Shown: one piece after another, positions 13,201 to 34,521 of the stretch
Numbering within the stretch: the stretch's first letter is position 1
How the letters are laid out: each line of letters begins with the position of its first letter
Assembly (NCBI GenBank): GCA_050287845.1
Contig: JBNKCR010000016.1
Coordinates: 1-59,519, forward strand
Direction of reading: 5' to 3'
Source of the DNA: Polyangia bacterium
Lineage (GTDB): Bacteria > Myxococcota_A > Polyangia > JAAYKL01
DNA: 59,519 bases
The notes under the pieces: generated by a model
The model's input: the letters and a program-made list of their open reading frames with translations, nothing else
The model's database searches: none
What the model was told of the DNA's origin: nothing
Translations under genes and position numbers: made by a program

Positions 13201-16200
13201 CTTCCGGTTCATCCAAATGGTCTTTCTGCACACATCCAATTTTGTAATACAGATCCGTCTTATCCTGTTCGTCCTCAATCAACGGCAGCTGCATCTGATA
13301 ACACTCGTACAAATCGCCCCATCTTTCCGTCTGTTTGTACAATCGTTCCAGAGCAGACAGTGCCGTCATTCCCGGCCCCGTTTCGTTGTTGGCCTGAGTA
13401 TAGGCGTCGATGGCTTCATCCTGGTTTCGCAGTTTGTCTTCGAAAAGACCGGCCACCCGTATGAGAATATCCCGGCGCTTCATCACGTCATCTTCGTAGG
13501 TGGCCCGATGCTGCAGAATAGAAATCAGCTCTGTCCAATTTTCGTCAAGTGTGAACAACCGTTCCAGACCGCTCATAGCAGGAATATCTGCGTCGTCGAC
13601 CTCCAGAATTTCTTTAAAAAGGGCAATGGCATTCACGGAATTGTCCTGAACCGTTTCTTCCAGATTTGCCATGCGATGCAGCACCTGCTTCTGCTCATCC
13701 GGAGAATGCATCAGACTGGCTTTGATTCGCAACACTCTTATCAGTGAGGCAATGTTCTGGCTATGGCTTAAAATGGCATCCAGGGCCACAATTGCCGGCA
13801 TGGCCGTTTCCGCATTTTCCGGATCAAACAGGAGCAGAGACATATACGCCTGCTCCGCTTTTTCCAGGTCGCCAATCTGCTCTTCATACGTCAATGCAAT
13901 CGCCAGCCTGAACTTGGGAACCAACAAATCATCTTCCAGATTTGACGTGATTTCTTCGAGCAGTTTACAGAATTGCCCGTTGAAATTCTGTTCCACCGCC
14001 AGTCTGGAAATCTCTGCGAAAACCATTTCGTTGTCAGGTTCCAGCTTAAGCGCCTGACTGAGAACATCAAACGCGCCCTGTTCATCGTTAAGGCGACGCT
14101 CTCGAATGCCGGCTACCTTCAGCAGAATATCCACCTTCTCCGCTGGACTCAAGTTCTCGTCGTCCAGCATGATCATCAGTACATGGGCCAGAGGCTGCGC
14201 AGCGCCCTGATGTTCGTAATTCACCGAAAGCAACTGTGCCGCCCGAAGTTTCATTCTGTCAATTTCAAGCAGTCGCTCCAGCGCCTTCTGTGTCTTCATA
14301 TTCTCGGGATCCGCCTCAATCACCTGCTCGTAATAAAGAATTGCATCCTCGTAATTCTGTAACTTCTGCTCAGAAATTTCACCGATCCGGTACCGGATTG
14401 CCACGCCGTTATTGTCGCCGGCGGTCTGCAACTGGCTCAGCAATATATGAATCAAATCCTCCCAGCGTTCCGCTTCCTCATACAGATTCACCAAAGCGCT
14501 GATGGCCACCGCATGTTCCCCATCCACTTCCAGAACATCATTATATGCCTTGATGGATGCATCCACATCGTGCTGCACTTCGTATACAACAAAACAGATT
14601 TTCAGCAGCAGTTCCAGATAGCCACCGGTATACGAGTTCTTTTCCTTGGCCGTGTGGTAGAGCCTCAGCAAATCATCCCACCGCTCCATATTGGTGTACA
14701 GCTGCTCCAGGGCATTGAACGATTCAACCGCCTCAGGAATTTCTTCCAGAATCAGCAGATGAAACCGTTCCGCCGTCTGCGCCGATCCCAGTTCACTTTC
14801 GTAGAATGTTGCCAACTTCGAGGCCAGCTTCAACTTCATATGGTCTTCAATTTTATCACTGTCGAAAGCTTCCTGAAGCTTGATTCCCAAATCCTCGTTC
14901 ATTCCCAGACTCTGGGCATATCCACTGATTTTTTCCCACAATTCCGGATCGTTGGGTTCCTCATGCAGCGCCACTACCATGGTGTCGTAGGCCAAACGCT
15001 CATCGTCCAGTTTAATGGCGTAAATATCGGCAAGTCGGATGTGCAGTGCGATCCTTTCAAAAAGCTCCCGCGTGTTCTCTACAAGAATGGTGAGCACCCA
15101 GGCCAATCGCTTCCAGTCTTCCATGTCCACCAGATGGGGCTCCAGAATGCGGGCCACCGCGAACTGATGGTCAGCATCACGTAAAAATACATCCAATGCG
15201 GAAATGGCTTTGGGATCTCCGGGAAACGCCGAAAGGATTTCCTGATAAATACCCACCGCCCGACTTTTTTCATTCAGATTATCCACGTAAACAGCTGCCA
15301 GCTGAAACGCCTTATCCCGCCAAATGTCATCTCCCGGAGAAAGCAACGCTTTTCGGGACTCCAGAACTTCCGTCAAATCGCCCCAGCGTTCCGAGATTGA
15401 AAAAATGCGCTCCAGCGCTTCCAGCGCATCGGCGTCTCCGGCGTGTAATTCCAGAACATTCCGGTATTTGGCAGCGGCCCGTATGGAATCATCCATCGCC
15501 TCTTCGTACATCCGCGCCAATTCCAGCATCAGACTGCGCCGCATGTCCTCGTCATCCGTATTCTCGATTCGCATATCGAAAATCTTTTCGAGCTCCGACC
15601 ACTTGCCTGTGGAACGATAGATGGAATCCAATGCAAGCAGCGTATTCTCGTCGCTCGGATTGTCCTCCAATACTGCCTTGTACTGCGAAATGGCATCTTC
15701 CACATCCCCCAGCTTGTCCAGGGACAGAGCTGCAATGTGCTTTTCCATGGATGCCCGGCGTTTTCCCTTGAACGCGGCGATATTCTTTTTATATACATCC
15801 ACCAGCCGGTCAAACGCGTGGGCCTGTTCCGCAGCGGCTTCGAGGGTATCCCGAATAGATTTTTTGGTCGGCTTTTCTTCAAAGGCGCGAACCGCCCACT
15901 GGAACGCCAGCTCGCGATTGTTCATCTTCGTAGCGGCCAGCTCGCGAATCGCATCCATCCGCTCAATGCGATCGTCCTTGTCGTCGATCTCATTCAGCGT
16001 CAGTTCAAGTACGCCGAGCAACCGGCTCCATTTTTCAGCGCGCTCATAAATGGGAATCAATGCATTGGCCGCCCGCATGTTTTCCTCATCCACCGACAGC
16101 ACCCGTTCGTAATGCCGAACGGCGCGATCCGGCTGCTGAATTTTATCCTCGTATATTTCCGCACACCGGAACGAAAGTTGAATCCGGGTTTCCACATCTT

Positions 16201-18400: not shown

Positions 18401-18692
18401 ATGCCTTGCCCTTACCTTACCAATCGCCGTCGGATAAGACGGAGTTAAAACGGTTGACTGAAACGGTAACTGCTTACCCTCTTCCATTTAATTCCCAGAA
18501 AACGCTGGAATTGTGAGTTTACACATTAAGTTGTAAGAGTCTAGAAGTACACTGATAAAAAGGCAACACTGTATAATTCTTATAGGAAAACTGAACAGGT
18601 TTCCAGTAGCCCATTTCGGGGAGCCACGAAAGCCGTTGCCGAGGTCAACTGAAACATATATAGTTCGTCGGCGAAAAAAAACGGAACGATGA

Positions 18693-20561
18693 ATGGCAAA
18701 TGGTTCTCAAAAAATAACACGGCTCGGCAGATACGATTTACGGGAAGAAATCGGGCGCGGGGGAATGGCAACGGTTTATCGGGGATATGATTCCATCCTG
18801 AAGCGGGACGTGGCCGTGAAGGTGCTTCATCCCCACCTGGTCAGTCACGAGGAAGCCAGAGCGCGATTTGAGCGGGAAGCCCGATCCGTTGCCAGACTGC
18901 ACCACAATTCAATCGTTGAAATATACGATTACGCAGAGGCCGAATCAGGCGAAGTCTATATCGTGATGGAACTGGTGGACGGCTACACCCTGCGCGAGTT
19001 TCTGCTGGAACACACCGGACATCCCCTGATGGCCGAAGGCGCTGCACTGATTGCCCGGCAGATATTTGTGGCCCTCAAAGCTGCCCACGCCAAGGGGATC
19101 GTGCACCGGGACGTGAAGCCCGAGAATATTCTCATCAGCAAAAATGGCCAGATTCAACTGTCGGATTTCGGGATTGCGTTTCTCGCAGGGATTGGACAGA
19201 TGACCGCCACCGGCCAGATCCTCGGATCCCCAACCTATATGTCGCCGGAACACATCGAGAGCCCGGCAGTCGACGCCCGGGCGGATATCTTTTCCCTGGG
19301 CACCATTCTCTATGAAATGACGGTGGGCCTGACACCGTTTATGGGCAACAATCCCCATCAGATCATAAAAAGGGTGGTAGAGGGCTACTATGATCACCCA
19401 CTGAGTGTGAACCCGTCGGTCGGACATCCCCTGGCATCCATCATCGTCAAATGTCTGCAGCAGCAGCCGGAACGGCGATATCAGACAGCGGACGAAGCCA
19501 TCGAAGATTTGGATTTCGCGCTGACCCAGATGGGTCTTACGGATTTTGAAAAAGAGCAGATGGCCTACATCGCCAATCCCAACGGATGGGAACAGGACCA
19601 CATTGACCACATTGTGGCCAGAACTCTTCAGATGGGGAAGGATGCCCAGAAGCACAAACACCTGCCGGAGGCGATGAACCACCTGAATCGGGTGCTGGCC
19701 ATTGAACCCGACAACGAAGCGGCGCTGGGCATTGTGAATGTACTCTCCCGGCGACGTCAGTTTCGACGGAATATGGAGCGCATCGGCAGTCTGGTAGCGG
19801 TCGCCGCAGTGGTCATCATCGTGCTGGCCGGTATTGTTCTGTACCGATGGGATCAGCCGTCGCCCCCCGGCGCCACCAATGACACCGAATCTTCTCCCGA
19901 TATACCCGGCCTGCCGGATACCACTTCGATAGCCGAATCGGACACGGATTCCATCACCGACAGCGCCGGAACCCGTCTTTTTGAAAATCGGCCAAGCGGT
20001 ATCATTCCCATCGGCGACAGTGAAACCGATACGTCATCGGAGGTCACCCCGGATTCCGACTCGGAACCGTTGCGCAGAATGCGATCCCATCCTGTGGAAG
20101 TCCCCAGAAAACGGACGGTGATTTTCAATCCCATTCCCATGAGTGTGGACATCCTGATTGACAACAGTGAGCGGTTTACCTTCAAAGCCACGGACCGTGC
20201 GCGGGACCTGGACCCCGGCAATCACAATGTCAAGTTCATCCCAGTGGATGATCGCCTCGAAACCCTCACGGAGACCATCACGGTGGAAAGCGATGACGCC
20301 CCCCTGACTGTACCCGCGCGTTTACGATGGAAGCCCGGAAAGTTGCTGGTAAAATCCAACGTTGAAACCGATGTGGCCGTTAATGGTCGTGCACTGGGCC
20401 GCACCAACAGTGTCATGGAACTGGACATAAAAAATGGTCCCACCACCCAATTTCGCATTTTATTGAGCGCCAGGGGTTATCATCCCACAGAAAAACTGGT
20501 ATCTGTAAGTGCCGGGAAAACGACAGAAATCGTTGTTCAACTCGAAAGCGAACATCCCTGA
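18693..20561 (+). CDS. Hanks-type Ser/Thr kinase with TPR, TM and C-terminal PEGA-like domain
   Basis: IGRGGMATVY, VAVK, HRDVKPEN, DFG, YMSPE, DIFSLG; TM LVAVAAVVIIVLAGIVLY; C-terminal beta domain. Confidence 0.93.
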   Translation: MANGSQKITRLGRYDLREEIGRGGMATVYRGYDSILKRDVAVKVLHPHLVSHEEARARFEREARSVARLHHNSIVEIYDYAEAESGEVYIVMELVDGYTLREFLLEHTGHPLMAEGAALIARQIFVALKAAHAKGIVHRDVKPENILISKNGQIQLSDFGIAFLAGIGQMTATGQILGSPTYMSPEHIESPAVDARADIFSLGTILYEMTVGLTPFMGNNPHQIIKRVVEGYYDHPLSVNPSVGHPLASIIVKCLQQQPERRYQTADEAIEDLDFALTQMGLTDFEKEQMAYIANPNGWEQDHIDHIVARTLQMGKDAQKHKHLPEAMNHLNRVLAIEPDNEAALGIVNVLSRRRQFRRNMERIGSLVAVAAVVIIVLAGIVLYRWDQPSPPGATNDTESSPDIPGLPDTTSIAESDTDSITDSAGTRLFENRPSGIIPIGDSETDTSSEVTPDSDSEPLRRMRSHPVEVPRKRTVIFNPIPMSVDILIDNSERFTFKATDRARDLDPGNHNVKFIPVDDRLETLTETITVESDDAPLTVPARLRWKPGKLLVKSNVETDVAVNGRALGRTNSVMELDIKNGPTTQFRILLSARGYHPTEKLVSVSAGKTTEIVVQLESEHP

Positions 20562-21548: not shown

Positions 21549-24101
21549 ATGCGTTTTATGTGGAAATATTTCAGAACCCGTCTGCCAGTGATTCTCGCCC
21601 TCACCGCGATTGCCACTGTCTACGTGGCGGTTACCTCGGATTTCGAGGCGGATTCCCCGCTTGCCGAACAGATTTCCACGGCGACCGGACTTCACATATC
21701 TCCGGATTCCGTCCGCTTTATCGAACCGTTTGACGCCGCCAATCTGCATTCGGCCACACGCTTTCACGAACTGGCCTTTCTGGCCACCGACGGCAAATCC
21801 CCGCACCGGGACCTCTATCTGGCAAAAGTCAAGCTATCCCCCGGGCCCGGACTCATCGATGTGTCATCCCCGATAAATCTCACCCACTCCGATGCTGGCG
21901 ATGACTACCTGTTCGAAATTCGCCGACACCTGATTATTGTATCCACACGGGTACTGGGTCAGGTGCGCTCCCTGACGATATTTGATCTCCGGGGCGTCCG
22001 GTTTCCTGAGGACGAAGACTGGGACACCCTGCAGCGGACGCTGGCCAGGCTCACGGATTTTCAGAAAACCGGCAGGTGGAAGGGCATTGCCAAAACCACT
22101 GTCCGATTCGACAATCCCGCCAGAAACGCTGATTTTTCAGTGGTCGATACCCCGGACCAATTCGCACTCTCGCTCCGGTGGACTGACAGCAGTCAGACCC
22201 GGCATGCCGCGCGGGTTAATTTAAATACCATGAAAACCGCAGACCCCGGGATTCAGGTGCTTGCGGAGGTTCGACTGCCCAAACGGCCGGTACTCTGGAC
22301 CGTGGATACCGTGCGAAGTCTGGACTGGATTGGCCCCGGACCCATTGAATGGGCGGAGGGACGCTTTTTTGCCATGAAAGACCGGATTCATCAATTGAAG
22401 TATTCCATCTCCGGAGACGATGAATCCAATGGATCGAATGTGTTTGCCGCCACCCCGCGCCACATTGAACTCAAGCTTCCCGAAGGCACCGAGGTCGGCG
22501 ACTACAATCCGCTGACGTGGCCCCCGGAGGAACTGGAAGCCCCGGTATTTTCCAGGAAAAAAACCGGGGAGGGCGAGTGGATACCGGCGGATCCCGATTT
22601 CGTGAAAACCCTGCCCAATGCGCCACCATCCATTTACAAAACCTATATCCGGACCGATCGCAGTCGCCCGTATACCCATGTGAATCTGTATGCCATGGAC
22701 ACGCGACAGCTGTCGCTGCACATGGTGGGCGGCCACGAGGATCCCATTTCAACCACTGGCGAAGTGGGAACCGGACAATTGCCCAGAGATAAGGAAACCG
22801 TTGAAAAAATCGCCCTGGTGTTCAACGGCGCCTTCAAGACCATTCACGGGGAATACGGTATGATGGCCGATCGCACCGTGCTGTTACCCCCAAAGGATGA
22901 AGCCGCCACCGTGGCCACCGACAATGATGGCCGAGTGGCCCTCGGTACGTGGCCTGCGGGGCAGGAAATCCCGGACACCATGGTATCATTTCGCCAGAAC
23001 ATGGATCCCCTCCTCGAAAACGGCGTGGTAAATCCCAAAAGGCGATATCTCTGGGGGTTCACCCTTGGCAGCGATATTTCCCAGATGAATACCATCCGCT
23101 CCGGACTCTGCATCCGGGACGACGGCATTCTCATTTATGCCTGGGGCGACGATTTAACCGCCATTACCCTTGGCGAAGCCATGCGCGCTGCGAAATGCAG
23201 CTACGGCATTCATCTGGATATGAATCCGTTCCACACCAGTTTTGTGGCCTTTCAGATGACCTGGCGGGGCGATGATGTTCTGCCGAAATTTGAATATCGC
23301 AAGCTGATAAAAGATATCCGGTTCTGGCCGGACAGATACGTGCACGGCGCCCCCAAAGACTTTTTCTATATGACCCTCCGAGATACAACGCCGCCGGGAC
23401 AGGACTGGACGACCCAGAATATCACCCAACCGGCGCCCGCATTTTTACCCGCGATTTTCAAGCGCGAAAAAAGCAGCATATCGATGCTGGCCATTGATTC
23501 GGATGCCGTCCAACCCATTCTCCTGCCCGGCGTGGTACCCGGGGTGACCGCAGACGGGACGGACAGTGTTGCGGACAATCTCCCGGACGACCTCAACCTG
23601 GTGGGGGAAATGCTGCTCGGCAAATGGTCTTCCAACCGGGGGCAGATGACCGGGGGAACCATTGTGGCCACCCTGAAACCGGATGCCCCGACCCTGTATC
23701 TCGATGCGGATGGCGCGATGCACATCGCGGCGTGGAGCCCGGCGCAACTCAGGACGCAGAACGCCATTCAGGGAGAATGGCTCATCCGGAATGGCGAAAT
23801 ATCCGGCGCCCGGAGAGAAATTCTGGCCGTCGGCAGACTCGATAAGTGGATTTATCTGGCGCGGGGCAATGGGGCCACCGTGGCGGCGGAATTCATGAAG
23901 ATGGGAATCCGGGACGCTATCCTTTTCGATGGTGATAATGGCGATATTCTCCTGCGCAGCAGTGGCCGCATGACCACCATTGACGGCACTCCCCGCACCA
24001 GCCGTGATATATCCCCGGCGGCGCTTCGATTCAGTGCCCGGGCACGGGGACCATTCGGCACGCGTCTCAGTGAATTTTTTCCATCCGCAGCGGACAGATA
24101 A
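21549..24101 (+). CDS. Membrane-anchored protein with phosphodiester glycosidase (NAGPA/DUF2233)-like domain
   Basis: N-terminal TM; FNGAFK..HG, SFRQN, RSGL, HLDMN motifs. Confidence 0.6.
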   Translation: MRFMWKYFRTRLPVILALTAIATVYVAVTSDFEADSPLAEQISTATGLHISPDSVRFIEPFDAANLHSATRFHELAFLATDGKSPHRDLYLAKVKLSPGPGLIDVSSPINLTHSDAGDDYLFEIRRHLIIVSTRVLGQVRSLTIFDLRGVRFPEDEDWDTLQRTLARLTDFQKTGRWKGIAKTTVRFDNPARNADFSVVDTPDQFALSLRWTDSSQTRHAARVNLNTMKTADPGIQVLAEVRLPKRPVLWTVDTVRSLDWIGPGPIEWAEGRFFAMKDRIHQLKYSISGDDESNGSNVFAATPRHIELKLPEGTEVGDYNPLTWPPEELEAPVFSRKKTGEGEWIPADPDFVKTLPNAPPSIYKTYIRTDRSRPYTHVNLYAMDTRQLSLHMVGGHEDPISTTGEVGTGQLPRDKETVEKIALVFNGAFKTIHGEYGMMADRTVLLPPKDEAATVATDNDGRVALGTWPAGQEIPDTMVSFRQNMDPLLENGVVNPKRRYLWGFTLGSDISQMNTIRSGLCIRDDGILIYAWGDDLTAITLGEAMRAAKCSYGIHLDMNPFHTSFVAFQMTWRGDDVLPKFEYRKLIKDIRFWPDRYVHGAPKDFFYMTLRDTTPPGQDWTTQNITQPAPAFLPAIFKREKSSISMLAIDSDAVQPILLPGVVPGVTADGTDSVADNLPDDLNLVGEMLLGKWSSNRGQMTGGTIVATLKPDAPTLYLDADGAMHIAAWSPAQLRTQNAIQGEWLIRNGEISGARREILAVGRLDKWIYLARGNGATVAAEFMKMGIRDAILFDGDNGDILLRSSGRMTTIDGTPRTSRDISPAALRFSARARGPFGTRLSEFFPSAADR

Positions 24102-24153
24102 TCTAGGCGCTGCCATTTATTTGTGCTATCATAACGCAACGCAGTGTTTTGAT

Positions 24154-24756
24154 ATGGGAAAAGCTAAAACAAATTCACCACTTCTCGGCTACAATACCAA
24201 TGTTCGTCACGGGGGACATCTGTTCCATATTCAGACTGAAGATTCTGGTGTGGACCATCCTCATGTGATTACGCACCTGTTTACCGAGGGCACCATTCTG
24301 TCGTCAAAGAAAACCGAATATGACGAGCATCTTGAAAAAGGTAACTATGAAGATATCGTCCGGCAGTTGATGAAGGACCAGCATAAGGCGATGTTTGTGG
24401 AGCTGCGGGATGGGGTCCACGATGAAATCGCCGAAAAAATACTCGGCCACGCGCTGGATCACGCCACCGGTGGCAAAACCCGAACGATAAAACCCGGCGC
24501 CAAAAGCGGATTCACGGTGCAAAGCGAACAGGCGCCCTATCCAGCGTCCGGCTCTATCGATATTGCCGCAACGGTGGCTGCCGTTGCTCCGGCGTCCATG
24601 ACCCCCCATGCAGAGGCAGGTGTTCCCGAGCTATCACGGGGCATATCGATCTTTGATACCCCCGATGCCAATGGCACGTTCGGCGATTCACTCATCAGTG
24701 ATAAGTCGCTGGATGAAGTGATTCTCAATTACCTTTCCGACGAACTCGACGAATAA
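24154..24756 (+). CDS. Conserved hypothetical protein
   Basis: LGYNTNVRH..FHIQTEDSG..HP..ITHLF, MKDQHKAM and C-terminal KSLDEVILNYL motifs recalled from myxobacterial hypotheticals; ATG 24154. Confidence 0.75.
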   Translation: MGKAKTNSPLLGYNTNVRHGGHLFHIQTEDSGVDHPHVITHLFTEGTILSSKKTEYDEHLEKGNYEDIVRQLMKDQHKAMFVELRDGVHDEIAEKILGHALDHATGGKTRTIKPGAKSGFTVQSEQAPYPASGSIDIAATVAAVAPASMTPHAEAGVPELSRGISIFDTPDANGTFGDSLISDKSLDEVILNYLSDELDE

Positions 24757-24807: not shown

Positions 24808-25764
24808 TCAGGAATCCTGCACATCACAGTGAATGGGAAAATGATCGGAGGCCTGTTTGGCATCGTCGGTTTTTTTCGCAATGGCGCCGGAGTTCATCAC
24901 ATAACGGAAATCAGCAGTTTCGCGCAGCATCCCCGGCGATACAAAAATATGATCCAGCCACGCCCGGTGCAGACTGAAATTGGCCACAATGCGGTCCGGA
25001 TACTCAGTGGTCCACAATTCCTTCTGTCGGTCGCTCTCCATGTAATGCCACAGGGTGTTGTGCAGAATACGCCGGGGAGAATAAATACTGCCGGTAATGG
25101 TTTCCACAGCGCTGGCCCCCAGCATTTTCTCAAAGTGATCCAGACCCGGTTCATCATTTATGTCCCCCATGACAATCAATGCCCTGTCGGGATCTTCCAC
25201 AAGCAAACCATCGACCCGCTCGCGAACCTTTTTGGCCTGACCGTACAGTTTTTTTCGATTGGCCAGCGCCAGATGCTCATACTGGTGAATATCGGTTGTG
25301 AGAAATACGCCCTTGGATTTGAATGACACCAGAATAATCAGAATTGTGTTCCCGGTCAGCCGGTTGCGAAAAACCACTTCCAGGGGACGTCTTTCAAATG
25401 ACAGCTGCTCCTTGATGGTGTCGTTGTCAATATCTTCAATCCACTCCCCATAGAATGCGTAGTGTTCATCCACCGATATCGCCTCAAAGGGCTCGCGATA
25501 GTAAAACACGAGATCCTGCTTTCCCCTGCGGTGGGCGCTTTTGGCCACCTGCAGGCGCAGGGGTGCCAGCTCCGGAAGATTCAAAAAAAAATCATGGTCT
25601 CCCCGGCGATCACTGGCCTCCACAATTCCAGCGATGTGAGGCAATGTCCGGGCAAGGGTTCTCGCCGCGGCTTCCCCCTGTTGTACCCCCTTCTCAGTAA
25701 AGTGGTTTTTCCGGAACAATCCCCGCATATTCTCAATGTTGTACGTTGTGATTCGGTACTGCAT
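24808..25764 (-). CDS. Endonuclease/exonuclease/phosphatase (EEP) family protein
   Basis: TYNIEN, MGDIND, LDHIFVS, SDHFP catalytic motifs. Confidence 0.92.
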   Translation of the reverse strand: MQYRITTYNIENMRGLFRKNHFTEKGVQQGEAAARTLARTLPHIAGIVEASDRRGDHDFFLNLPELAPLRLQVAKSAHRRGKQDLVFYYREPFEAISVDEHYAFYGEWIEDIDNDTIKEQLSFERRPLEVVFRNRLTGNTILIILVSFKSKGVFLTTDIHQYEHLALANRKKLYGQAKKVRERVDGLLVEDPDRALIVMGDINDEPGLDHFEKMLGASAVETITGSIYSPRRILHNTLWHYMESDRQKELWTTEYPDRIVANFSLHRAWLDHIFVSPGMLRETADFRYVMNSGAIAKKTDDAKQASDHFPIHCDVQDS

Positions 25765-25922
25765 CCTGCACTCCTGGTACGGTTACATCATCGGGATATC
25801 CGGTTTCCCCCTATCAGGCAAGCGGATTGTACACGCTCACCCGGTCAGAGCCAGTTACCTCGAAACAGATGCCCTTCTGAATTTCGGCACGGGATACACC
25901 GGAGGGCGTTGACGGTCCGGTT

Positions 25923-27413
25923 TCAATTTACAGCTGAAACATCCAGCCGCTGGGCGATGGACGCGCCAATCTGACTCATGATGGTGGTCCAGTTTTCTCT
26001 GCAGATTGAATACACAAATCCAAGAGATCCGAATTCCCGGGCTATCTGTACGATGCGGGAAGCGGGATAGGCGGCGGTGACCGGGCGATTGCCCATTTCT
26101 TCAGATTCTCCTTCCGCATACCGGGTACATGCGTATTCGAAATAGTTCTGTCTTGATCCCCCGTCCCCCACCTCTCGCTCTACAGTATCGGGACTGCCCA
26201 TGGTGCCGGTTCCGTTCACATTCGGCCGTACGTTCAGGCAGTCGCCAATCTGATCGCCGCGCCCCTCGCACACTGAGCCGACCGGCACGCCGGTAATGGC
26301 GGCAAACATCATCGTTCCGGTGGCATCTGCACCACTGATGGCGCTTTTGGCGGCGACAATGTCTTCCTGCAGCTGTTTCACATCATGCATCATTCCCGGA
26401 TGACGACCACAGGCCAGATTGATGTCGGCGGTCCCCAATTCGTTCACGTGGTACCAATCAGGATCAGCGATAGAACAGTCTTCTTCGTCTGTAATCATCA
26501 CCACCACCGTCATGGCATTGGCGCGAAGAAACGCCTGTCCCCGGGAGCTGTTCATCGCTGCAGATACCGCAGCCAGGGGTTGCTCAATGTTGCAGCCGCC
26601 CGTCCCCCGCTGGGTGAGACAGGCACCGGCGGCAATGAAATCCGCAAATTGGATAGCCCCGGAAATCCGGTTCCGGGGAGTGAGATATCGCCCATCGCCG
26701 AGGTAATCAGTTACCGGCGGACATTCAACCTTTGTGAAATCGTTGATTGGCGCACAGACCCCATTGCCCATCATGTCCCGGTGCACACAGGCCCAATCCG
26801 CAGGGCATCCCATGGGTTCCGTATTGCCGTTACATGTGATTTCATCATCGGAGACTGCGATGGTCAGGGCGCCGGCACCTTCCATCCCCATGGAATAATC
26901 CCCAATCAACACCCCATTATCGCCATGATCACTGCATTTGGGGTCAAAAAACCAGGACTCCTCCCCGGCGAGCACCCCCCCCTCATAACTGACCCCCATG
27001 TCACTGGTAATCACCCCCAGACGCAAATCAATATCGGCGTGACCCACGCCGGCCAGAAGAGAATTGATCATGGCGTACATGGAGGTGGCCAGCAACTCCT
27101 GTTCCTGTTCCATCGAATTGCTGTTGTCCACCACAAATAGCAGCTCCACTGCATTCAGAGACGGCACCGGAGACACGGTGTCCGTGTCTGAATCACTGTT
27201 TTCCGGATGGCCATTACTCTTGCAAATCCCGTTCCGACAAATCCCGCTGTCGCAGTCCTCATGAATGACGCACGCCACACCGGCGGTGGTATCGGCGCAT
27301 CCCGCCACCGTCAGCAGCACCATCAGCATGAACCACACCAAACCCCGAATCGACGGCATTATTTTTCGGGAAGAGTGACAGCCCGGTTGTCCCATGGAAA
27401 TTTTCTCCATCAT
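25923..27413 (-). CDS. Cys-rich lipoprotein with vWA-like (DxSxS) domain
   Basis: LTVAGC lipobox, Cys-rich N-term, LLFVVDNSNSMEQEQ, GVITSDMG, EQPLAA, ITDEEDCS; ATGA overlap with caspase gene (start may be later). Confidence 0.8.
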   Translation of the reverse strand: MMEKISMGQPGCHSSRKIMPSIRGLVWFMLMVLLTVAGCADTTAGVACVIHEDCDSGICRNGICKSNGHPENSDSDTDTVSPVPSLNAVELLFVVDNSNSMEQEQELLATSMYAMINSLLAGVGHADIDLRLGVITSDMGVSYEGGVLAGEESWFFDPKCSDHGDNGVLIGDYSMGMEGAGALTIAVSDDEITCNGNTEPMGCPADWACVHRDMMGNGVCAPINDFTKVECPPVTDYLGDGRYLTPRNRISGAIQFADFIAAGACLTQRGTGGCNIEQPLAAVSAAMNSSRGQAFLRANAMTVVVMITDEEDCSIADPDWYHVNELGTADINLACGRHPGMMHDVKQLQEDIVAAKSAISGADATGTMMFAAITGVPVGSVCEGRGDQIGDCLNVRPNVNGTGTMGSPDTVEREVGDGGSRQNYFEYACTRYAEGESEEMGNRPVTAAYPASRIVQIAREFGSLGFVYSICRENWTTIMSQIGASIAQRLDVSAVN

Positions 27414-29038
27414 ATGGTTCGCACATACAGGTTCAGACCGGCGTTCAGCGACATCCCCCAGAAATGCTCCCGGGATGCCGACGCGGCCTTGGCCCAGGTG
27501 GCGCCAGTACGCAGAAACACCGCGGCATTGAAACGACGGTCCTTATGAAACAGCCAGGTGGCCTTTCCTCCGAACCCGACACTGTTGGACTGCTGCAGCG
27601 ATGTATCGTTGAACTCCTGCCAGACATGCATGTACTCCACATCCAGTCCAATACTCAGCCGATTGCTGGATATATCCATTGCCGGTCCCCCTTCCAGACT
27701 CGCAATCAGGCTGTCGGCGTCGTATCCCCAAACCCCGCTGTCCCGGTCTTCTCCCATCCATCCACTGCGCATCCCCAGATAAAAGCGCGGAAAATCCAGG
27801 CGCAGGGGCATTGAAACCATGTGCCCATTGGAAAGCAACCCATTGGCGGTGTAACTGTACGAATACGATCCGCCGACCAGCATCGAAACCTTCATATGTT
27901 TCTGACGCAACTCAATGGTCTGCAGGTCATCCGTTCCCTTGCTCCACAGGGTATCGCTGGAATAGGCCAGTGGCGTGGCCGCATTCAGTTCCGATTGCCG
28001 GCGCAGTACCAGTTCACCGCCGTTTTCCACATGAAAGCTTCTGGAGAAAGTGATGGTATCGCCATCCACATAGCTCAGCGTGACCTCTCCGGGATACAGA
28101 GGCACTTTTTTCCGGGCACCGGCCCGTTTTTCAATGAGTTCCGTCAACTGGCCGTCGGCATAGGAAAGCACGAACTGGCCATGCAGCTCCCTGGACATTT
28201 CCAGGGAAGCGGTTCGCTCCAGCGGAAATGAAAAGAACACCGGCGCGCTGGACTTGAGTTCAGAGATATACTGCTGGGGTTCCTGGGTGCGATTCTGTTT
28301 TCGGGTGTACTGCACCGTTTTTTCCCGGGCGTAGTTCCATATGCTGTCCAGGGTAATCCCGGGCCCGCTGCGGGGGGCCTCGGTCAGCGCTCTGATGAAA
28401 AAATGCGTAAACACCCCCCCAAGGCGAGTGTCCTCATAACTGACCTGACGGGCACCGCTCGATACATACCAGACCCGACCTCTGGCATTGAGCACTTCTC
28501 TGGGCATTTCTGAAAACATGTTGAACCCCGGAGTGGATACCACGCCCTTGGGGGATAGAGAACCACTGTGGCAGGCGTCAAATACCCCTACCGCGAAATC
28601 CGCATCCACCTGTTCAAACATCCGGCCCAGTTCGCTGGCGTACAGGGGACCGTCCTCCATGAGCAACCGCCCCTGCAACCCGTGGCCGGTGAAATAAAAA
28701 AGAAAAATGGCATCCATTTCTCCCAGGGTAGCGGCATCCGCTCTTCGTTGCCGGGCAATTCGGGCAATGGCTTTTTTCACATCCGCGCGGGTGGCGCCGG
28801 TAAGCAGCAATGTACGCTTTGAGTCTGCCGTGAAATTGGCCAGCCCCACCAGCTTCCGTTTCAGCTTTTCCGCCTCTTTTTCCGCATATCGCAGGGCAGT
28901 GAAAGGAGAGCTGCCATCGCTGTCCACTCCGGTGTTGTTCCCCACAATCAGGGCATAGCGGACCGTGGCGGCACCCGCCTCTCCCGAGACCGACAGAAGC
29001 AACCCAAAAAGAAGAACCGGCATCAATCCCTTTTTCAT
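27410..29038 (-). CDS. Exported caspase-family (peptidase C14) protein with C-terminal beta-barrel-like region
   Basis: Signal peptide; RYALIVGNN, LRYAEKEA, FYFTGHG (His), FDACHSG (Cys), GGVFTHF, QEP; alternating beta-strand C-terminus. Confidence 0.88.
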   Translation of the reverse strand: MKKGLMPVLLFGLLLSVSGEAGAATVRYALIVGNNTGVDSDGSSPFTALRYAEKEAEKLKRKLVGLANFTADSKRTLLLTGATRADVKKAIARIARQRRADAATLGEMDAIFLFYFTGHGLQGRLLMEDGPLYASELGRMFEQVDADFAVGVFDACHSGSLSPKGVVSTPGFNMFSEMPREVLNARGRVWYVSSGARQVSYEDTRLGGVFTHFFIRALTEAPRSGPGITLDSIWNYAREKTVQYTRKQNRTQEPQQYISELKSSAPVFFSFPLERTASLEMSRELHGQFVLSYADGQLTELIEKRAGARKKVPLYPGEVTLSYVDGDTITFSRSFHVENGGELVLRRQSELNAATPLAYSSDTLWSKGTDDLQTIELRQKHMKVSMLVGGSYSYSYTANGLLSNGHMVSMPLRLDFPRFYLGMRSGWMGEDRDSGVWGYDADSLIASLEGGPAMDISSNRLSIGLDVEYMHVWQEFNDTSLQQSNSVGFGGKATWLFHKDRRFNAAVFLRTGATWAKAASASREHFWGMSLNAGLNLYVRTI

Positions 29039-29045
29039 ATACGCC

Positions 29046-29849
29046 TCAATTCCGAATCCGCTGCACTTTCACCTGCATCTCTTTCATCCCGTCTATGGTC
29101 AGGGTACAGTCGTCTGATATAGTCAACCCGTCTGCTAGGTGCCCGCCAAGCGTCGAAACGGACATCTCCTTCCCGGTAAAAATCGCCACCGTCCACTCGC
29201 AGGTCGTGGCCGGTGTTACGATGGCCCCGTCTTTCAGGGGAATCCGGGTACCCGCCAGAACCGAACGGGTCCGATCTGAATCAGTGGGATACAGTACCGA
29301 AACCTTTCCCGTCCCGTCCACGTGAAACAGCGCCAGATGTGCATTCCGGGAAGCGGAGTAAAAGAATCCCAGCTGATCGCCGGTTCTCACCGTCTCACCG
29401 TGACGCAGGGGAAATGCGGCGCCATTGCGGCTGACGGCGATTTCCAGGTCGAACACTGCTCCTTTGGGAGTGAGCACCGCGTCTCTGTTGGCCTCCCCCG
29501 TCCCATGCCAGATAACCGCGCCAATTCCAGCGCAAATCCCAACCACCAGCGCCGCGGCAACCGACCACAGAATTCTGCGGGGCCGCACCCTCGCAAATCG
29601 ATAGGAATACGCATTGGCGTTGCCCGATGATTCCCGCGAATCGGTCATCTGCGAATACAATCCAACGGATTCCCGACACAGTTCGCAGTCTTTCAGGTGG
29701 GGAAACCGCAACAGAATTTTTGAGGGGGAATCTCCGCTCTCCAGCGCCGCGGCGATTTCTTCGGTGTGGGAACAATCGTCCTTCATATCGTACCCGGGGC
29801 GGCCGGTCAGCAGCGTTTCCAACCTGTCTATCGATATTTTATCATTCAT
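29046..29849 (-). CDS. ZAS-type anti-sigma factor with TM and DUF4384-like extracytoplasmic domain
   Basis: HLKDCELC (HxxxCxxC), TM ILWSVAAALVVGICAGIGAVIW, PKG..GDQLGF..VDGTGKVSVLYP; ATG 29849 overlaps sigma stop. Confidence 0.8.
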   Translation of the reverse strand: MNDKISIDRLETLLTGRPGYDMKDDCSHTEEIAAALESGDSPSKILLRFPHLKDCELCRESVGLYSQMTDSRESSGNANAYSYRFARVRPRRILWSVAAALVVGICAGIGAVIWHGTGEANRDAVLTPKGAVFDLEIAVSRNGAAFPLRHGETVRTGDQLGFFYSASRNAHLALFHVDGTGKVSVLYPTDSDRTRSVLAGTRIPLKDGAIVTPATTCEWTVAIFTGKEMSVSTLGGHLADGLTISDDCTLTIDGMKEMQVKVQRIRN

Positions 29850-30385
29850 TGGGCCACCGCCTTTCGCTGCAGACACTCCCGAATCAGGGTCAGACTTTTC
29901 TGCATCAATCGTCCGATGTACTGTTTGGTACCGCCCAGCATGTCCCCAATCTGCTCATTGGAAAGACCGTTCCGGTACTTGAGCCGAAGGGCGCTCTGGG
30001 CTTTGGGGGTCAAGGTTTCCATGCACTTTTCCAGACTGGTCATCAGAATAGGCGGTTCCGCATTCGCGCCAGCGTGTTCCGGCGGGGGTACCCGCAATTC
30101 ATCGAATCGTTCACCGTTCAACAGACGCTGCCTCTCCCGTACGGAACGCCGAATCGCCATGAGTTTGATATACGACCAGGCCCCATGGGGATTACTGAGA
30201 TTTTCCACATAGTGAAACATGAAATCATTGAGTAAATCCGTGGTCACATCCACAGCGGTCGGTCCCTGTCCAAGGACACGGGAGCAGATGGCGAGCACCG
30301 GTTCAAACCCGCTATTCCAAAAATCCCTCCGTGTGGCAACATCCCCCCGCTTCAACCGGAAAACCGTTTCTGACGAAATTTGCAC
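29846..30385 (-). CDS. ECF RNA polymerase sigma factor
   Basis: GTG 30385 after GGGAGG; divergent region 2 (DVTTDL, WSYIKLMAIRRS) and region 4 (LEKCMETLTPKAQSALRLKYRNGLSNEQIG). Confidence 0.85.
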   Translation of the reverse strand: MQISSETVFRLKRGDVATRRDFWNSGFEPVLAICSRVLGQGPTAVDVTTDLLNDFMFHYVENLSNPHGAWSYIKLMAIRRSVRERQRLLNGERFDELRVPPPEHAGANAEPPILMTSLEKCMETLTPKAQSALRLKYRNGLSNEQIGDMLGGTKQYIGRLMQKSLTLIRECLQRKAVAQ

Positions 30386-30578
30386 GATACCTCCCAATCG
30401 AATGTGTTTCTGCACTGCCAATACTGAATGACCCCCAACGGTCATATAAGTAACCCAAATTTTTTTTTTACCCCAAAAATCACACGGATGATCGCAGCGA
30501 AAAGCCATCGACACGCCCTGATACAAGTGATAAGTATGGGCCAAACTTGAAATCAGGCTGTTTGCCGGGAAGTGAATC

Positions 30579-31088
30579 ATGGTCAGTCAATTCAATGTCG
30601 AAGAAGTTCTGGAAATCGCATGTCAGATTGAACGCAACGGCGCCACATTTTATCGTACCGCCGCCGACCTCGTGACCATGGCGGAAAGTCGGGAGTTGCT
30701 CATGAAGTTGGCGGAAATGGAAACGGGCCACGAAGATTTGTTTGCGGACATGAAATCCAGAACCGAGGAATTTAACAATTTCTTCAGCGATCCCGACGGA
30801 ACGGCGGTGATGTATCTGCAGGCCATCGCCAACAACCATGTGTTTGTATCGGATCAGAAACCCGAAGACATTTTTCCTGCCGATGCCACTGCACTGGAAG
30901 TACTCCGCACCGCACTGAACGCGGAATTTGCGTCCATCGCATTTTTTCAGGGCATTCTGGAACACATGCCGGAGGGGTTTGGCCGCGACAAGCTCAGGAA
31001 CGTAATTATGGAAGAACAGGAGCACGTGGTCATCATCAATAAGAAGGTCATCGCGCTTGCTGGCGACAAAGAAAGGATACCGTTATGA
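30579..31088 (+). CDS. Ferritin/rubrerythrin-like diiron protein
   Basis: [28 protein letters not shown] ExxH motifs. Confidence 0.9.
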
Positions 31089-31355: not shown

Positions 31356-32258
31356 TCAGGAACGAAGAAGGGATTTCGCCACATACATGCCGCAATTGGA
31401 TCCGATTTGGTTCTCCCGCATTTCGCCAATGCTGACGATGACATCAAACCCGTGCTTCTGAATCGCGTCGCAAAGAGGCGCCGCGGTTTGGGGGTCTTCA
31501 GTAATCACCCCTTCAAGACCGGCGGCCTGACTGACGAACGTGGGGTTCACCGGTGTCAGCTTGATAATAAAAATATCGGGACTGAAGAGGCTGGCAATCA
31601 CATCAGCGTCAATCTCAAATCCCTGAACCGCAGCAAAATTCAGGGTGATTTTACGATCGCCCCTTTCAAAAAACCGATCTCCCATTCTGCGGATTTCCGC
31701 CAGGGGCAATGTGGCAGCCGGAATCAGAATCCTTCGCCGGGCATCGTCCGTTGTGTGAATGGAAAATTGCATCTGGAACATGCCATCGCCGTACAGTTCA
31801 TCTTTGACCTGCTTGAGTGAATCAATGAAAGTGGTGCAGTTTTTCGGCGCTACCGTGGAAATCGACGGCATTATCCGGCTGGGATATATGCGGGGAATAT
31901 CCCGCAGCACTTCCATCACCGCCGGATTGAACGCCGGGTCTCCCATGCGGGCGAACTGAATTTTGGTGATTTCTGAAGCAATGCGTCCGTCCGGAAACCG
32001 CCGGGTCACCAGGTGCTCAATCTGGGACAGCATTTCGTCCCGGGACAATCGGCCACTATATTTGCCACCGGCATCGCAAATGGGGCACTGAACCGGACAT
32101 CCCTTGAGTGTGGAGACAATCAGCACCCACTTTTTTTCTCTGGGTACCGGCGGCTGAACCGATTCCACGAACTCAATCCGCGAACCGTCGCCGGTCTCCG
32201 CCACAAACACCCGCGCCAGTTCATCATCTCCGAAACTGTGTAAAACAGTAATTGTCAA
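31356..32258 (-). CDS. RlmN/Cfr-like radical SAM protein
   Basis: CPVQCPIC (CxxxCxxC), ARMGDP, SIH, C-terminal GSNCG; TTG 32258 overlaps upstream TGA. Confidence 0.85.
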   Translation of the reverse strand: MTITVLHSFGDDELARVFVAETGDGSRIEFVESVQPPVPREKKWVLIVSTLKGCPVQCPICDAGGKYSGRLSRDEMLSQIEHLVTRRFPDGRIASEITKIQFARMGDPAFNPAVMEVLRDIPRIYPSRIMPSISTVAPKNCTTFIDSLKQVKDELYGDGMFQMQFSIHTTDDARRRILIPAATLPLAEIRRMGDRFFERGDRKITLNFAAVQGFEIDADVIASLFSPDIFIIKLTPVNPTFVSQAAGLEGVITEDPQTAAPLCDAIQKHGFDVIVSIGEMRENQIGSNCGMYVAKSLLRS

Positions 32259-33985
32259 CCCGCTGTTCTCCCGATAAGTTGCACTATCTGTTGTGCCGCA
32301 AAAAGGCCATCGCCAGTGGCAATTCCCGCCTGACCCAGCGAACCGAGCCGGGCATCGCCGCAAATAAACAAACCGGGCGCGGGTGTCAAGTTGTCTCCCC
32401 GTAAAAGCGCATCCGGCAGCACCGAAGGCAAACGGGATTGGCGTCCGATGGCCACCAGCATGGCGTCAAACCGATGTACCGCCAACCCCACGCAGCACCC
32501 GGAATCGCCGATATGCTGACCGATTTCCCCTTTGAACCCGTCTCCGTCCGATTGCACGCGAATCAGCTCGCTCGAAGTGAAGAGGCGAATTCGAGGTTCG
32601 CGTTTCACCAGTTCCGCCAGTCGCCCCCGCACCCGTGGAATCGAATTGCGACACAGAATGGTTGCCGTGCCGTTCGACCGGGCGATCGAAAGGGAATAGT
32701 CAAACGATGCTTCGCCACCACCAACAATCAGGATTCGTCCGCCCTTCCATTTTTGAAGTAGCGGCGCGACTTCGTAGAAAAGACATTCCGCCAGCTCCAC
32801 CGTTTCGCGTCCGATAAACGACAGGGTGCGGGGTGTCGTACCACAGGCCACCACCACACACCGCGCCTCGAGAACACCGGAACCGGTGATAACCCGCCAT
32901 GAAGAATCCGCGCCGGGAGGCACAGATCCGGTCCGGGAATCATAGACGTCCGGACGGATTTGCTGTACCGTGTCACGATGCACACCCACCTTAAAACGCG
33001 TGAGTTGCCGGGCGAGGCGGGTCGCAAAATCCGGACCGGTAACCGAATGCGCCAACCCGGGATAATTCTCGATTTCAAACGCGTTCACCGTCAGTCCCCC
33101 CGGCTTACCGGTGCGGTCCATCAGCATCACATCGAGACCCAGCCTTCTGCACTGCACCGCTGCAGCCACCCCGGCCGGACCGGCGCCGATAATGACCACA
33201 TCCTGAACGGGTCCTTTTTTCACCGCTGAACCTGCTGCAACCGTTGAATCTGGAGACTGCTGCCGGATTGCTGTCTGAGAGTGTTCCCCGGCTGTTTCCT
33301 CAGAACGTTCCCGGGGTACGCGCTCAACCGGCAGCATCTCCAGAAACCCGTCCACCGTATTGAGCACCGCAGTGGTCCGGGCCATGATGCCCAGGGAACT
33401 CAGGTGATTCTCTTCAGTATCCGCTGCGGTGCCATCCACCGGCACAAATACTTCCAATCCCCGGCAAAAAGCCGATCGCACGGTGGATTCCACACACATG
33501 TGGGTGAGGACACCGGATACCATCACCTGGGAAATTCCGGTCGATTGAAGTTCGGTGAGCAACGGGGTTTCAAAGAACGCATCATATGTGCGTTTATCCA
33601 CCACCCGCTCCTGTGATTGGACACACAAATCGTCAATCAATTGGGCATCCCTGGACCCTGCCTGAATATATCCGCTGAAAAATTTTCCGAACATGCCCAA
33701 ATCGTCCGGTCCTCGATGGCCGTGTCTGGCAAACACCACCATCCCTTCCCGGGCGCGCCAGGCATTCAACAGTCGCACCAGACCGGGAACCATCGCTTCA
33801 GTGGCCGGTAGATAGCATTCGCCATCGGGGTGCGTAAAATACCGGTTCATGTCCACCACCACCAGCGCACAGCGCTTCAACTCAAACTGAATCTGCGACC
33901 GGGGCCGCACGCCGTCGGTGGCCAGGCGAAGCCATTCGGCCGCCTGCCCGGGAAAATCAGATTGAATGTAGTTCTGCCGTTTCAT
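32255..33985 (-). CDS. Isochorismatase-family cysteine hydrolase fused to TrxR-like NAD(P)/FAD oxidoreductase
   Basis: N-half VVVDM, DKRTYDAF, GVLTHMCV (D/K/C triad); C-half GAGPAG, IENYPG, IVGGGEA, GLFICGD. Confidence 0.88.
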   Translation of the reverse strand: MKRQNYIQSDFPGQAAEWLRLATDGVRPRSQIQFELKRCALVVVDMNRYFTHPDGECYLPATEAMVPGLVRLLNAWRAREGMVVFARHGHRGPDDLGMFGKFFSGYIQAGSRDAQLIDDLCVQSQERVVDKRTYDAFFETPLLTELQSTGISQVMVSGVLTHMCVESTVRSAFCRGLEVFVPVDGTAADTEENHLSSLGIMARTTAVLNTVDGFLEMLPVERVPRERSEETAGEHSQTAIRQQSPDSTVAAGSAVKKGPVQDVVIIGAGPAGVAAAVQCRRLGLDVMLMDRTGKPGGLTVNAFEIENYPGLAHSVTGPDFATRLARQLTRFKVGVHRDTVQQIRPDVYDSRTGSVPPGADSSWRVITGSGVLEARCVVVACGTTPRTLSFIGRETVELAECLFYEVAPLLQKWKGGRILIVGGGEASFDYSLSIARSNGTATILCRNSIPRVRGRLAELVKREPRIRLFTSSELIRVQSDGDGFKGEIGQHIGDSGCCVGLAVHRFDAMLVAIGRQSRLPSVLPDALLRGDNLTPAPGLFICGDARLGSLGQAGIATGDGLFAAQQIVQLIGRTAG

Positions 33986-34134: not shown

Positions 34135-34521
34135 TGTTGTGGCGGCACAGATGATCGCGTGCGTTTTTCGTACGAGGAAAGTCCGAACTCCGCAGGGCAG
34201 GATGCCGGGTAACGCCCGGTGGGGGGTCACTCCCCTAAGGAAAGTGCCACAGAAAATATACCGCCGGCTTGCCGGTAAGGGTGAAAAGGTGCGGTAAGAG
34301 CGCACCGGGGCGCTGGTAACAGGGCTCGCATGGTAAACCCCATCCGGAGCAAGGCCAAACAGGAAGTTTTCAGTCTTCGGGCTGATAAGGGTTGCCCGCT
34401 CTCGTCTTCCGGGTAGGCCGCTCGAGGTGATTGGCAACGATCACTCTAGATGAATGATCATCACCTCTGGGATGGTGACATCGCAGATGGAACAGAATTC
34501 GGCTTATGGGTCGCCGCGACA
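34135..34521 (+). ncRNA. rnpB: RNase P RNA (bacterial type A)
   Basis: GAGGAAAGTCC, AGTGCCACAGAAA, GGTAAGAGCGCAC, GGTAAACCCC..GGAGCAAG, ACAGAATTCGGCTTA; P1 TGTTGTGGCGGC/GTCGCCGCGACA. Confidence 0.97.

Follow-up and report, generated by a model that had tools for sequence, protein, structure and literature searches.

A four-gene sigma factor, anti-sigma, caspase and lipoprotein cassette in a Polyangia bacterium as a candidate regulated-proteolysis switch

A window of 59,519 nucleotides (nt) from a Polyangia bacterium (the whole stretch of contig JBNKCR010000016.1 analysed here, assembly GCA_050287845.1) contains four minus-strand open reading frames (ORFs), arranged head to tail at 25923..30385, that encode a sigma factor of the extracytoplasmic function (ECF) type, an anti-sigma, an exported caspase and a lipoprotein. 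We propose, with a probability of roughly 0.55, that this cassette is a regulated-proteolysis switch in which the caspase is the dedicated site-1 protease and is followed by RseP. On a signal, the caspase would process itself at K164 and K367, and the cut at K367 would free it from its anchor and bring within its range a site that lies only some 15 residues from the inner membrane. There the Lys/Arg-specific caspase would cut the anti-sigma at K129-G130 and shed its Ig-like domain, after which RseP would cut the transmembrane (TM) helix and the sigma factor would be released. The freed sigma factor would transcribe the operon and lipoproteins bearing a four-cysteine module; to judge from the promoter, the lipoprotein would be the main output. 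The four genes are as follows.

29846..30385, minus strand: ECF-type sigma factor, 179 amino acids (aa), with a divergent region 2 (profile matches)
29046..29849, minus strand: anti-sigma, 267 aa, with an N-terminal helical domain carrying HxxxCxxC, one TM helix, a linker and an Ig-like DUF4384 domain (profile matches, hydropathy, model)
27410..29038, minus strand: exported C14 caspase, 542 aa (Pfam, AlphaFold model, fold search)
25923..27413, minus strand: lipoprotein, 496 aa, with lipobox Cys39, a four-cysteine module, an acidic linker and a Cys-rich domain resembling von Willebrand factor A (vWA) (sequence, profiles)

The sigma and anti-sigma genes overlap by ATGA, as do the caspase and lipoprotein genes, and the anti-sigma and caspase genes are separated by 7 base pairs (bp). 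Sigma70_r4_2, DUF4384 and Peptidase_C14 were matched over the Pfam cut-offs, and VWA below its cut-off. The sigma gene starts with GTG, and its relatives start at the same position. The sigma protein matched TIGR02937 over most of its length (E 3.8e-9, under the cut-off of that profile), and a Pfam region-2 match was not found; as a short protein with regions 2 and 4 only, it was assigned to the ECF factors. The gene array, the HxxxCxxC motif, TM helix and extracytoplasmic domain of the anti-sigma, the signal peptide and His/Cys dyad of the caspase, and the final lipoprotein with a DxSxS motif had all been listed in a preliminary description of this locus, and each was confirmed. The predicted C-terminal barrel of the caspase, the K/R-G motif common to caspase and anti-sigma, the fusions of sigma factor and anti-sigma, the predicted promoter and the narrow distribution of the vWA gene, all treated below, were absent from that description. 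No terminator-like site was found in 25700-26000. One RNA run contained 0.07 of the words and gave six short contigs at 95-99% identity, covering parts of the sigma factor, the caspase, the lipoprotein start and a neighbouring gene; these demonstrate neither transcription nor an operon.

The linkage of the genes was conserved, as the preliminary description had anticipated for triads of C14, DUF4384 and ECF genes. Of 44 related loci in which the sequence extended 2 kb or more upstream of the caspase gene, 40 had a same-strand anti-sigma gene and 38 a sigma gene as well (one frameshifted locus omitted); in a second set, drawn from relatives at the family and class level, the counts were 27 and 25 of 34, respectively. 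None of 15 distant caspase ORFs had a linked sigma or anti-sigma gene. The linkage is far above chance; since the loci were fetched via caspase similarity and are related by descent, the counts show linkage and not independent origins. The closest relatives of the source were metagenome-assembled genomes labelled Deltaproteobacteria, Myxococcota or Polyangia, and the loci surveyed span records of Myxococcales, Polyangia, Chitinispirillaceae and Fibrobacteres. The present genome had 13 C14 matches, 11 of them with an adjoining DUF4384-like gene, including one rearranged and one apparently degenerate cassette.

Several loci departed from this layout (contigs of this genome are designated C, and surveyed loci L). 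At C98:449980-454215, a caspase gene and two related lipoprotein genes are followed by the sigma and anti-sigma genes. Caspases with a degenerate or no anti-sigma were seen at C96:7344-10379, C6:30602, C106:8794 and L136 on C93, the last of these lying outside the 13 Pfam matches. In most of the Chitinispirillaceae/Fibrobacteres cassettes (L042, L045, L046, L048, L050, L051 and L053), a small exported protein of 179-228 aa, which in one case matches PagL, replaces the module-bearing lipoprotein after the caspase.

The caspase was characterised by its predicted active site and membrane anchor.

28571..28684, minus strand: catalytic dyad H119...C156; D154, together with E55 and E202, makes up a predicted acidic S1 pocket (alignment, MALT1 analogy)
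27413..27886, minus strand: predicted 8-stranded outer-membrane beta-barrel, residues 385-542 (model, fold search)

The protein matched Peptidase_C14 (PF00656) with E 4.8e-15 and 56.3 bits against a cut-off of 21.4. Its AlphaFold model (alignment of 105 rows; predicted local distance difference test score 88) indicated a catalytic domain at about 24-272, a beta-sandwich at about 277-347, a hairpin at 359-382 and an 8-stranded barrel. The signal peptide that precedes these parts was judged from sequence and hydropathy, and a hydrophobic N-terminus was found in 93 of 105 homologues. In a fold search, residues 22-272 matched metacaspase 4 (Z 20.9; root-mean-square deviation (rmsd) 2.6 over 206 aligned residues), caspase-9 (Z 20.9) and MALT1 (Z 19.6). 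The domain over cut-off, the caspase fold and the dyad together place the protein in family C14; no sequence in the PDB matched the profile of the present protein's own family at E 0.01. We compared 101 caspase/anti-sigma pairs, two frameshifted loci having been dropped. The His/Cys dyad was intact in all 101 caspases, and E/D55, D154 and E202 were acidic in 100. The acidic S1 residues of MALT1 are D365, D462 and E500 (PMC4357240; this and the other papers are cited for the parts of their text that were accessible). By positional analogy, E55, D154 and E202 would correspond to these residues, and cleavage after Lys or Arg is therefore predicted.

The barrel had eight strands at 385-540 in the model, and the fold match, which spans 381-542, was to NspA (Z 16.0, rmsd 3.2), OmpW (Z 15.7, rmsd 2.8) and OprF (Z 15.5). 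With eight amphipathic strands and these matches, the modelled domain is of the OmpA/OmpW type. We infer from the model that the caspase is anchored by an outer-membrane barrel with its protease on the periplasmic side, since the N-termini of OmpA-type barrels face the periplasm. Other caspase clades have hydrophobic helices or longer repeats at the C-terminus instead.

The anti-sigma offers a candidate substrate for such an enzyme, and the two proteins share a short motif, hydrophobic-x-x-K/R-G, which occurs once just outside the TM helix of the anti-sigma and twice in the caspase.

29676..29699, minus strand: HxxxCxxC zinc-binding anti-sigma (ZAS) motif, HLKDCELC, residues 51-58 (alignment)
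29511..29570, minus strand: predicted TM helix, residues about 94-113 (hydropathy; helix 90-117 in the model)
29460..29465, minus strand: K129-G130, candidate for the site-1 cut (or for docking), on the N-terminal border of the Ig-like domain (motif survey)
28544..28549, minus strand: K164-G165, candidate site of autoprocessing, within the loop that follows the catalytic Cys (motif survey)
27935..27940, minus strand: K367-G368, candidate release or latch site before the membrane anchor (motif survey)

H51, C55 and C58 of the anti-sigma were each present in 50 of 58 aligned rows, and sequence and model place HxxxCxxC in a cytoplasmic helical domain that precedes a single TM helix, as in ZAS proteins. 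The ectodomain of 138 residues is Ig-like and matched DUF4384 (E 1.3e-7). A fold search, which barely covered the N-terminal domain, gave generic Ig-like matches only (best Z 8.2), starting at residue 130. K129 lies about 15 residues beyond the TM helix in a low-confidence linker, with the Ig-like domain beginning at 130; a cut at this position would therefore leave a short stub.

Both caspase sites, K164-G165 and K367-G368, were almost invariant in the initial caspase alignment. In the paired set, a K164-type K/R-G was present in 98 of 101 cassettes against 4 of 15 control caspases, and a K367-type K/R-G in 93 of 101 (KG in 66, RG in 27) against 0 of 15. The anti-sigma linker carried K/R-G in 87 of 101 (KG in 72, RG in 15), KS or RS in five, and neither in nine. 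The chance rates for the windows searched were 23% for the K164 type, 14% for the K367 type and 9% for the anti-sigma linker. Leu was the commonest P4 residue at all three sites, with Arg or Ala at P3. Among 18 DUF4384 domains from outside the cassettes, none of the 13 that could be anchored had K/R-G at that distance, as against two of three new cassette domains; the anchoring is crude, and about three anchors appear mis-set. The K367-type site was retained in a clade where hydrophobic helices mostly take the place of the C-terminal barrel. This clade (L075, L076, L078 and L120-L138) has mostly R-G at the three sites.

The same motifs may be read as docking latches. The linker and the caspase loops would then compete for the active-site groove and bridge the periplasm, and a general protease of the Prc or DegS type would make the first cut. 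This explanation, which we consider unlikely, gains from the loci in which M-G replaces K-G. In L036, the pre-barrel site of the caspase and the anti-sigma site are both P-M-G-G-D, and in L088 and L102 M-G is found at the anti-sigma site only. The double change in L036 suggests common recognition of the two sites; it is a single case and equally compatible with docking or cutting. In IutY of Pseudomonas putida, moreover, Prc makes the first cut (PMC5411451). A pure scaffold, on the other hand, would not need the dyad that all cassette caspases keep, and a still-tethered protease would hardly reach K129 so close to the membrane, which also counts against the latches.

Release of the sigma factor by proteolysis, as proposed for the switch, is consistent with the fusions that were found. 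In five loci the sigma factor is fused in frame to ZAS-TM-DUF4384 as a single ORF of 424-489 aa (C141:81299-82672 and C98:227504-228898 in this genome; L008, L013 and L019), and by inspection of the tree the five sit at three separate positions. IutY is likewise a membrane-fused sigma factor, freed by Prc and RseP (PMC5411451), and RseP of Myxococcus xanthus degrades the anti-sigma DdvA once this lacks its ectodomain (PMC11506125). Two RseP homologues over the cut-off were found in the present genome.

The last gene and its likely regulation were examined from the following features.

30428..30456, minus strand: predicted ECF-type promoter with -35 GGGTTAC, a 16-nt spacer and -10 GGTCA (motif search, matrix)
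27222..27299, minus strand: lipid-anchor Cys39 and four-cysteine module (C48, C54, C59, C64) (alignment)
27114..27128, minus strand: D96-x-S98-x-S100, resembling a metal-ion-dependent adhesion site (MIDAS) (sequence)

A model-free search upstream of 16 sigma genes of the clade returned GG(T/G)TTAC, 15-16 nt and (G/C)(G/C)TC; its score of 152 compares with 126-133 for six shuffles. A matrix built from 11 relatives gave the site in the window 21.6 bits, and a score of at least 17 bits was reached by none of 5000 random 300-nt windows and by none of 50 loci of other clades, nine of these having mis-set search windows. The best score upstream of the five fused sigma factors was 10.5. Since ECF factors usually regulate their own genes, the promoter is likely to be read by the sigma factor of the cassette.

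Before the lipoprotein gene, between -1 and +32 nt relative to the caspase stop, 6 of 42 loci had a second copy of the promoter with at least 17 bits, and four further loci had a low-scoring variant there that is similar to the site of their own sigma gene. When sequences were compared inside each locus without a model, 12 or more of 13 positions were identical in 9 of 31 loci, as against 7 of 155 shuffles; one of the nine is a different motif. Among vWA paralogues with readable upstream sequence, the site was present in four of five with the module (17-22 bits) and in none of 17 without it; the fifth module-bearing paralogue sits 21 bp behind its caspase, 15 rows that were cut or had no lipobox were left unscored, and one with 102 nt upstream was omitted. 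In L003, a third copy in tandem carries the module and no promoter site. These promoter copies and their association with the module make the lipoprotein a likely output gene of the sigma factor. At C141:57557-58935 (minus strand), an unlinked module-bearing paralogue of the vWA lipoprotein is preceded by the same promoter (17.0 bits) and is a likely member of the regulon. The top promoter matches outside the cassettes, both 21.7 bits, were at C51:27945 (minus strand), before another ECF sigma gene, and at C20:76408 (minus strand), before a lipoprotein gene (628 aa) convergent with the C20 cassette; a sigma cascade is possible.

The lipoprotein has a lipobox-like TVAG-C39 and 20 Cys residues. 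Its vWA-like domain contains DxSxS (D96-N-S-N-S100) and T308-D309, with below-cut-off matches (VWA_2, 24.2 bits against 27) and VWA at 0.78 as the nearest named cluster in the atlas. A vWA gene follows the caspase only in the five closest of 53 loci (L001-L005). A vWA gene as the defining fourth member of the cassette was therefore rejected, and the vWA/MIDAS domain is better regarded as a swappable payload. Pfam matches among 32 downstream genes included amidase, Lcl_C, DUF285, beta-helix, DUF5050, LVIVD and CBM96. Common to lipoproteins of the clade with such unrelated C-terminal domains is the four-cysteine module, which was invariant in 25 of 25 aligned rows selected for having it. The lipobox Cys and the module were found in 25 of 34 clade loci with enough sequence against 1 of 89 other loci; elsewhere the module occurred with 3 of 7 orphan caspases of the clade, in 1 of 20 and 0 of 54 loci of other clades, and in 0 of 15 controls. 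By this sequence pattern, the module is enriched in the clade and not exclusive to it.

Because the conserved module adjoins the lipid anchor, a sensor role for the lipoprotein is possible. In cell-surface signalling the receptor is itself a target gene, and by analogy the module might also bind the barrel-caspase and relay the state of the payload domain, closing a feedback loop; we regard this extension as tentative and a little short of even odds. A complex prediction joined residues 24-542 of the caspase and 118-267 of the anti-sigma (its ectodomain) with the lipoprotein module (39-72). The module, as the scored partner, obtained 0.02 against a mark of 0.32, with controls not folded, and this speaks neither for nor against binding. 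Doubtful, in our estimate, is the wider view of a modular cell-surface signalling family, in which the barrel-caspase would read a swappable lipoprotein via the four-cysteine knot and cut both itself free and the anti-sigma at the same motif, each paralogous cassette monitoring and replenishing a surface protein of its own, for example an adhesin, an amidase or a lectin-like protein. If this is true, a caspase would here drive signalling across the envelope, with both its consensus site and the promoter defined.

Alternatively, the caspase may be merely a co-regulated output, or a maturase of itself and of envelope substrates such as the lipoprotein, with the anti-sigma under zinc or redox control or cut by another protease. 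Caspase and lipoprotein pairs that stand without sigma or anti-sigma genes (C6, C106, L012 and L017) fit this explanation, and the ZAS motif could sense the redox state, as is established for RsrA-type anti-sigmas. Nevertheless, we judge it quite unlikely: the most conserved residues of the anti-sigma linker copy the caspase's own motif, which DUF4384 domains outside the cassettes lack; an additional promoter stands before the lipoprotein gene; and the module of the lipoprotein in the window contains no K/R-G.

In the preliminary description, an envelope caspase with a gene of its own was proposed to bind or cleave the ectodomain of the anti-sigma once the lipoprotein senses a ligand. The shared basic-Gly motif, the predicted acidic S1 pocket, the intact dyad and the five fusions indirectly favour the action of the caspase on the anti-sigma; for the lipoprotein, the sequence evidence points first to a target gene of the sigma factor. 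Several points weigh against the switch and its regulon. The acidic S1 triad was also present in 14 of 15 control caspases and hence is not specific to the cassette; it indicates what the enzyme would cut rather than cassette specificity. The motif is missing from nine of 101 anti-sigmas, and three of these have M-G, which a strict Lys/Arg protease should not cut. Raw counts showed covariation between the sites in the identity of the basic residue, K or R (Fisher p 1e-5 to 1e-7); this was rejected as evidence, as sign tests corrected with a tree built without the motif loops gave a median p of 0.25-1 over 6-8 independent pairs. Seven caspases of the clade, one at a contig edge, have no upstream sigma or anti-sigma gene, and the six with room all keep the K164-type site, five of them also the pre-barrel K-G; the promoter was not found before these orphan caspases (0 of 6). 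Just 7 of 25 held-out clade loci reached 17 bits upstream of the sigma gene, and an internal promoter is missing (3.8 bits) in the window, where the lipoprotein gene overlaps the caspase stop. Finally, the four-cysteine pattern was defined on this clade, fails in 9 of its 34 loci and is matched by about six unlinked lipoproteins of the genome.

A role in anti-phage defence or cell death, in which the released sigma factor would turn on defence genes as in DdvA/DdvS or type III-E CRISPR, appears very unlikely. PADLOC gave a weak 'caspase' match (E 2.3e-8, positions 4-130 of a 453-position profile), and some Csx30 proteins have a C-terminal DUF4384 (bioRxiv 2022.08.17.504292). Nevertheless, PADLOC returned no match for the other three cassette proteins, the genes downstream in relatives encode amidase, Lcl, beta-helix, DUF285, LVIVD, DUF5050 and vWA domains, and the two top non-cassette promoter matches precede ECF sigma and lipoprotein genes. 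No Cas genes were seen among the flanking genes scanned, which comprised nuclease/phosphatase, rubrerythrin, RomY-like and radical S-adenosylmethionine (SAM) genes.

In the window, an exonuclease/endonuclease/phosphatase gene (24808-25764, minus strand) lies on the same strand 158 bp downstream of the lipoprotein gene, next to a gene for a RomY N-terminal domain protein (23980-24756, plus strand; NF053858, E 6.5e-33). A rubrerythrin/ferritin-like gene (30579-31088, plus strand) is divergent from the cassette and shares a 193-bp upstream region with it. At 31356-33985 (minus strand), a short RlmN/Cfr-like radical SAM gene with weak matches overlaps a 576-aa ORF which by eye resembles an isochorismatase fused to a flavin adenine dinucleotide (FAD) oxidoreductase. 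A helical repeat protein of 3756 aa, similar by eye to tetratricopeptide repeats (TPR), is encoded at 7217-18487 (minus strand), and a Ser/Thr kinase-like gene (18693-20561) lies divergent to it. The stretches 34139-34521 and 504-769 contain RNase P RNA class A and three tRNA genes.

Operons of sigma-70 and metacaspase genes have been described in M. xanthus DK1622 (four of five metacaspases), Anaeromyxobacter, Haliangium, Sorangium, Ralstonia and Fibrobacter (Asplund-Samuelsson et al. 2012, PMC3501461), that is, the same pairing in the same lineages; matched by description rather than by sequence, they are probably the same cassette. The accessible part of that account reports co-occurrence only, with no anti-sigma, barrel, motif, promoter, lipoprotein or mechanism. 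The preliminary description mentioned similar myxobacterial triads and knew of no mechanistic description; our literature searches, which covered mainly papers outside subscription journals and part of the ECF supplement, found no mechanistic account. The ECF classification of Casas-Pastor 2021 names DUF4384 for ECF25 and, in the part of the supplement covered, does not mention a caspase.

A similar logic is known from DdvA/DdvS in M. xanthus, which also combines an ECF sigma factor, a zinc-binding TM anti-sigma and a periplasmic caspase-fold domain with His/Cys, with a proposed site-1 cut in the juxtamembrane linker and RseP as the site-2 protease (PMC11506125). In DdvA, however, the anti-sigma itself includes a TPR-CHAT domain with unproven self-cleavage, and the genes controlled are those of CBASS-CRISPR (PMC11506125), whereas the cassette has a separate C14 enzyme with a predicted outer-membrane barrel, and its ectodomain is a small Ig-like DUF4384 without TPR-CHAT; the fold match of the caspase to DdvA was Z 10.3, against Z 20.9 to metacaspase 4. 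In type III-E CRISPR, a caspase-fold protease, Csx29, similarly cuts Csx30, which binds the sigma factor RpoE; that system is cytoplasmic and RNA-triggered, with a TPR-CHAT protease bound to Cas7-11 (bioRxiv 2022.08.17.504292), parts that the cassette does not have. Among the four cassette proteins, neither PADLOC nor Pfam matched Cas7-11, Csx29, Csx30 or Csx31, and the cassette is not a craspase. The analogy that the preliminary description drew with these two systems accordingly holds for the logic and not for membership. Cell-surface signalling of the FecA/FecR/FecI and IutY type has in common with the cassette an outer-membrane component, an inner-membrane anti-sigma, an ECF sigma factor, regulated proteolysis and fusions of sigma factor and anti-sigma (PMC5411451). 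The cassette differs in its 8-stranded, protease-bearing barrel in place of a TonB-dependent transporter and in a ZAS/DUF4384 anti-sigma in place of the FecR type, and so falls outside the TonB-dependent systems. MALT1 and the metacaspases share the caspase fold, acidic residues at the predicted S1 positions and a beta-sandwich after the catalytic domain (PMC4357240), and differ as cytoplasmic eukaryotic enzymes without signal peptide or barrel.

Since the gene linkage has been known since 2012 and the logic resembles that of DdvA/DdvS and cell-surface signalling, what is new is the wiring, of a known kind. To our knowledge, most bacterial caspases have no known substrate or role. The cassette offers a candidate substrate in the anti-sigma, a candidate site at K129-G130, two putative self-cleavage sites, RseP, a predicted promoter and a likely target gene. 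If true, the proposed switch would extend the known modes of trans-envelope signalling in Gram-negative bacteria by a site-1 protease that is dedicated to the task and tethered by a barrel, and would account for the dozen or so such caspases per genome (13 in this one).

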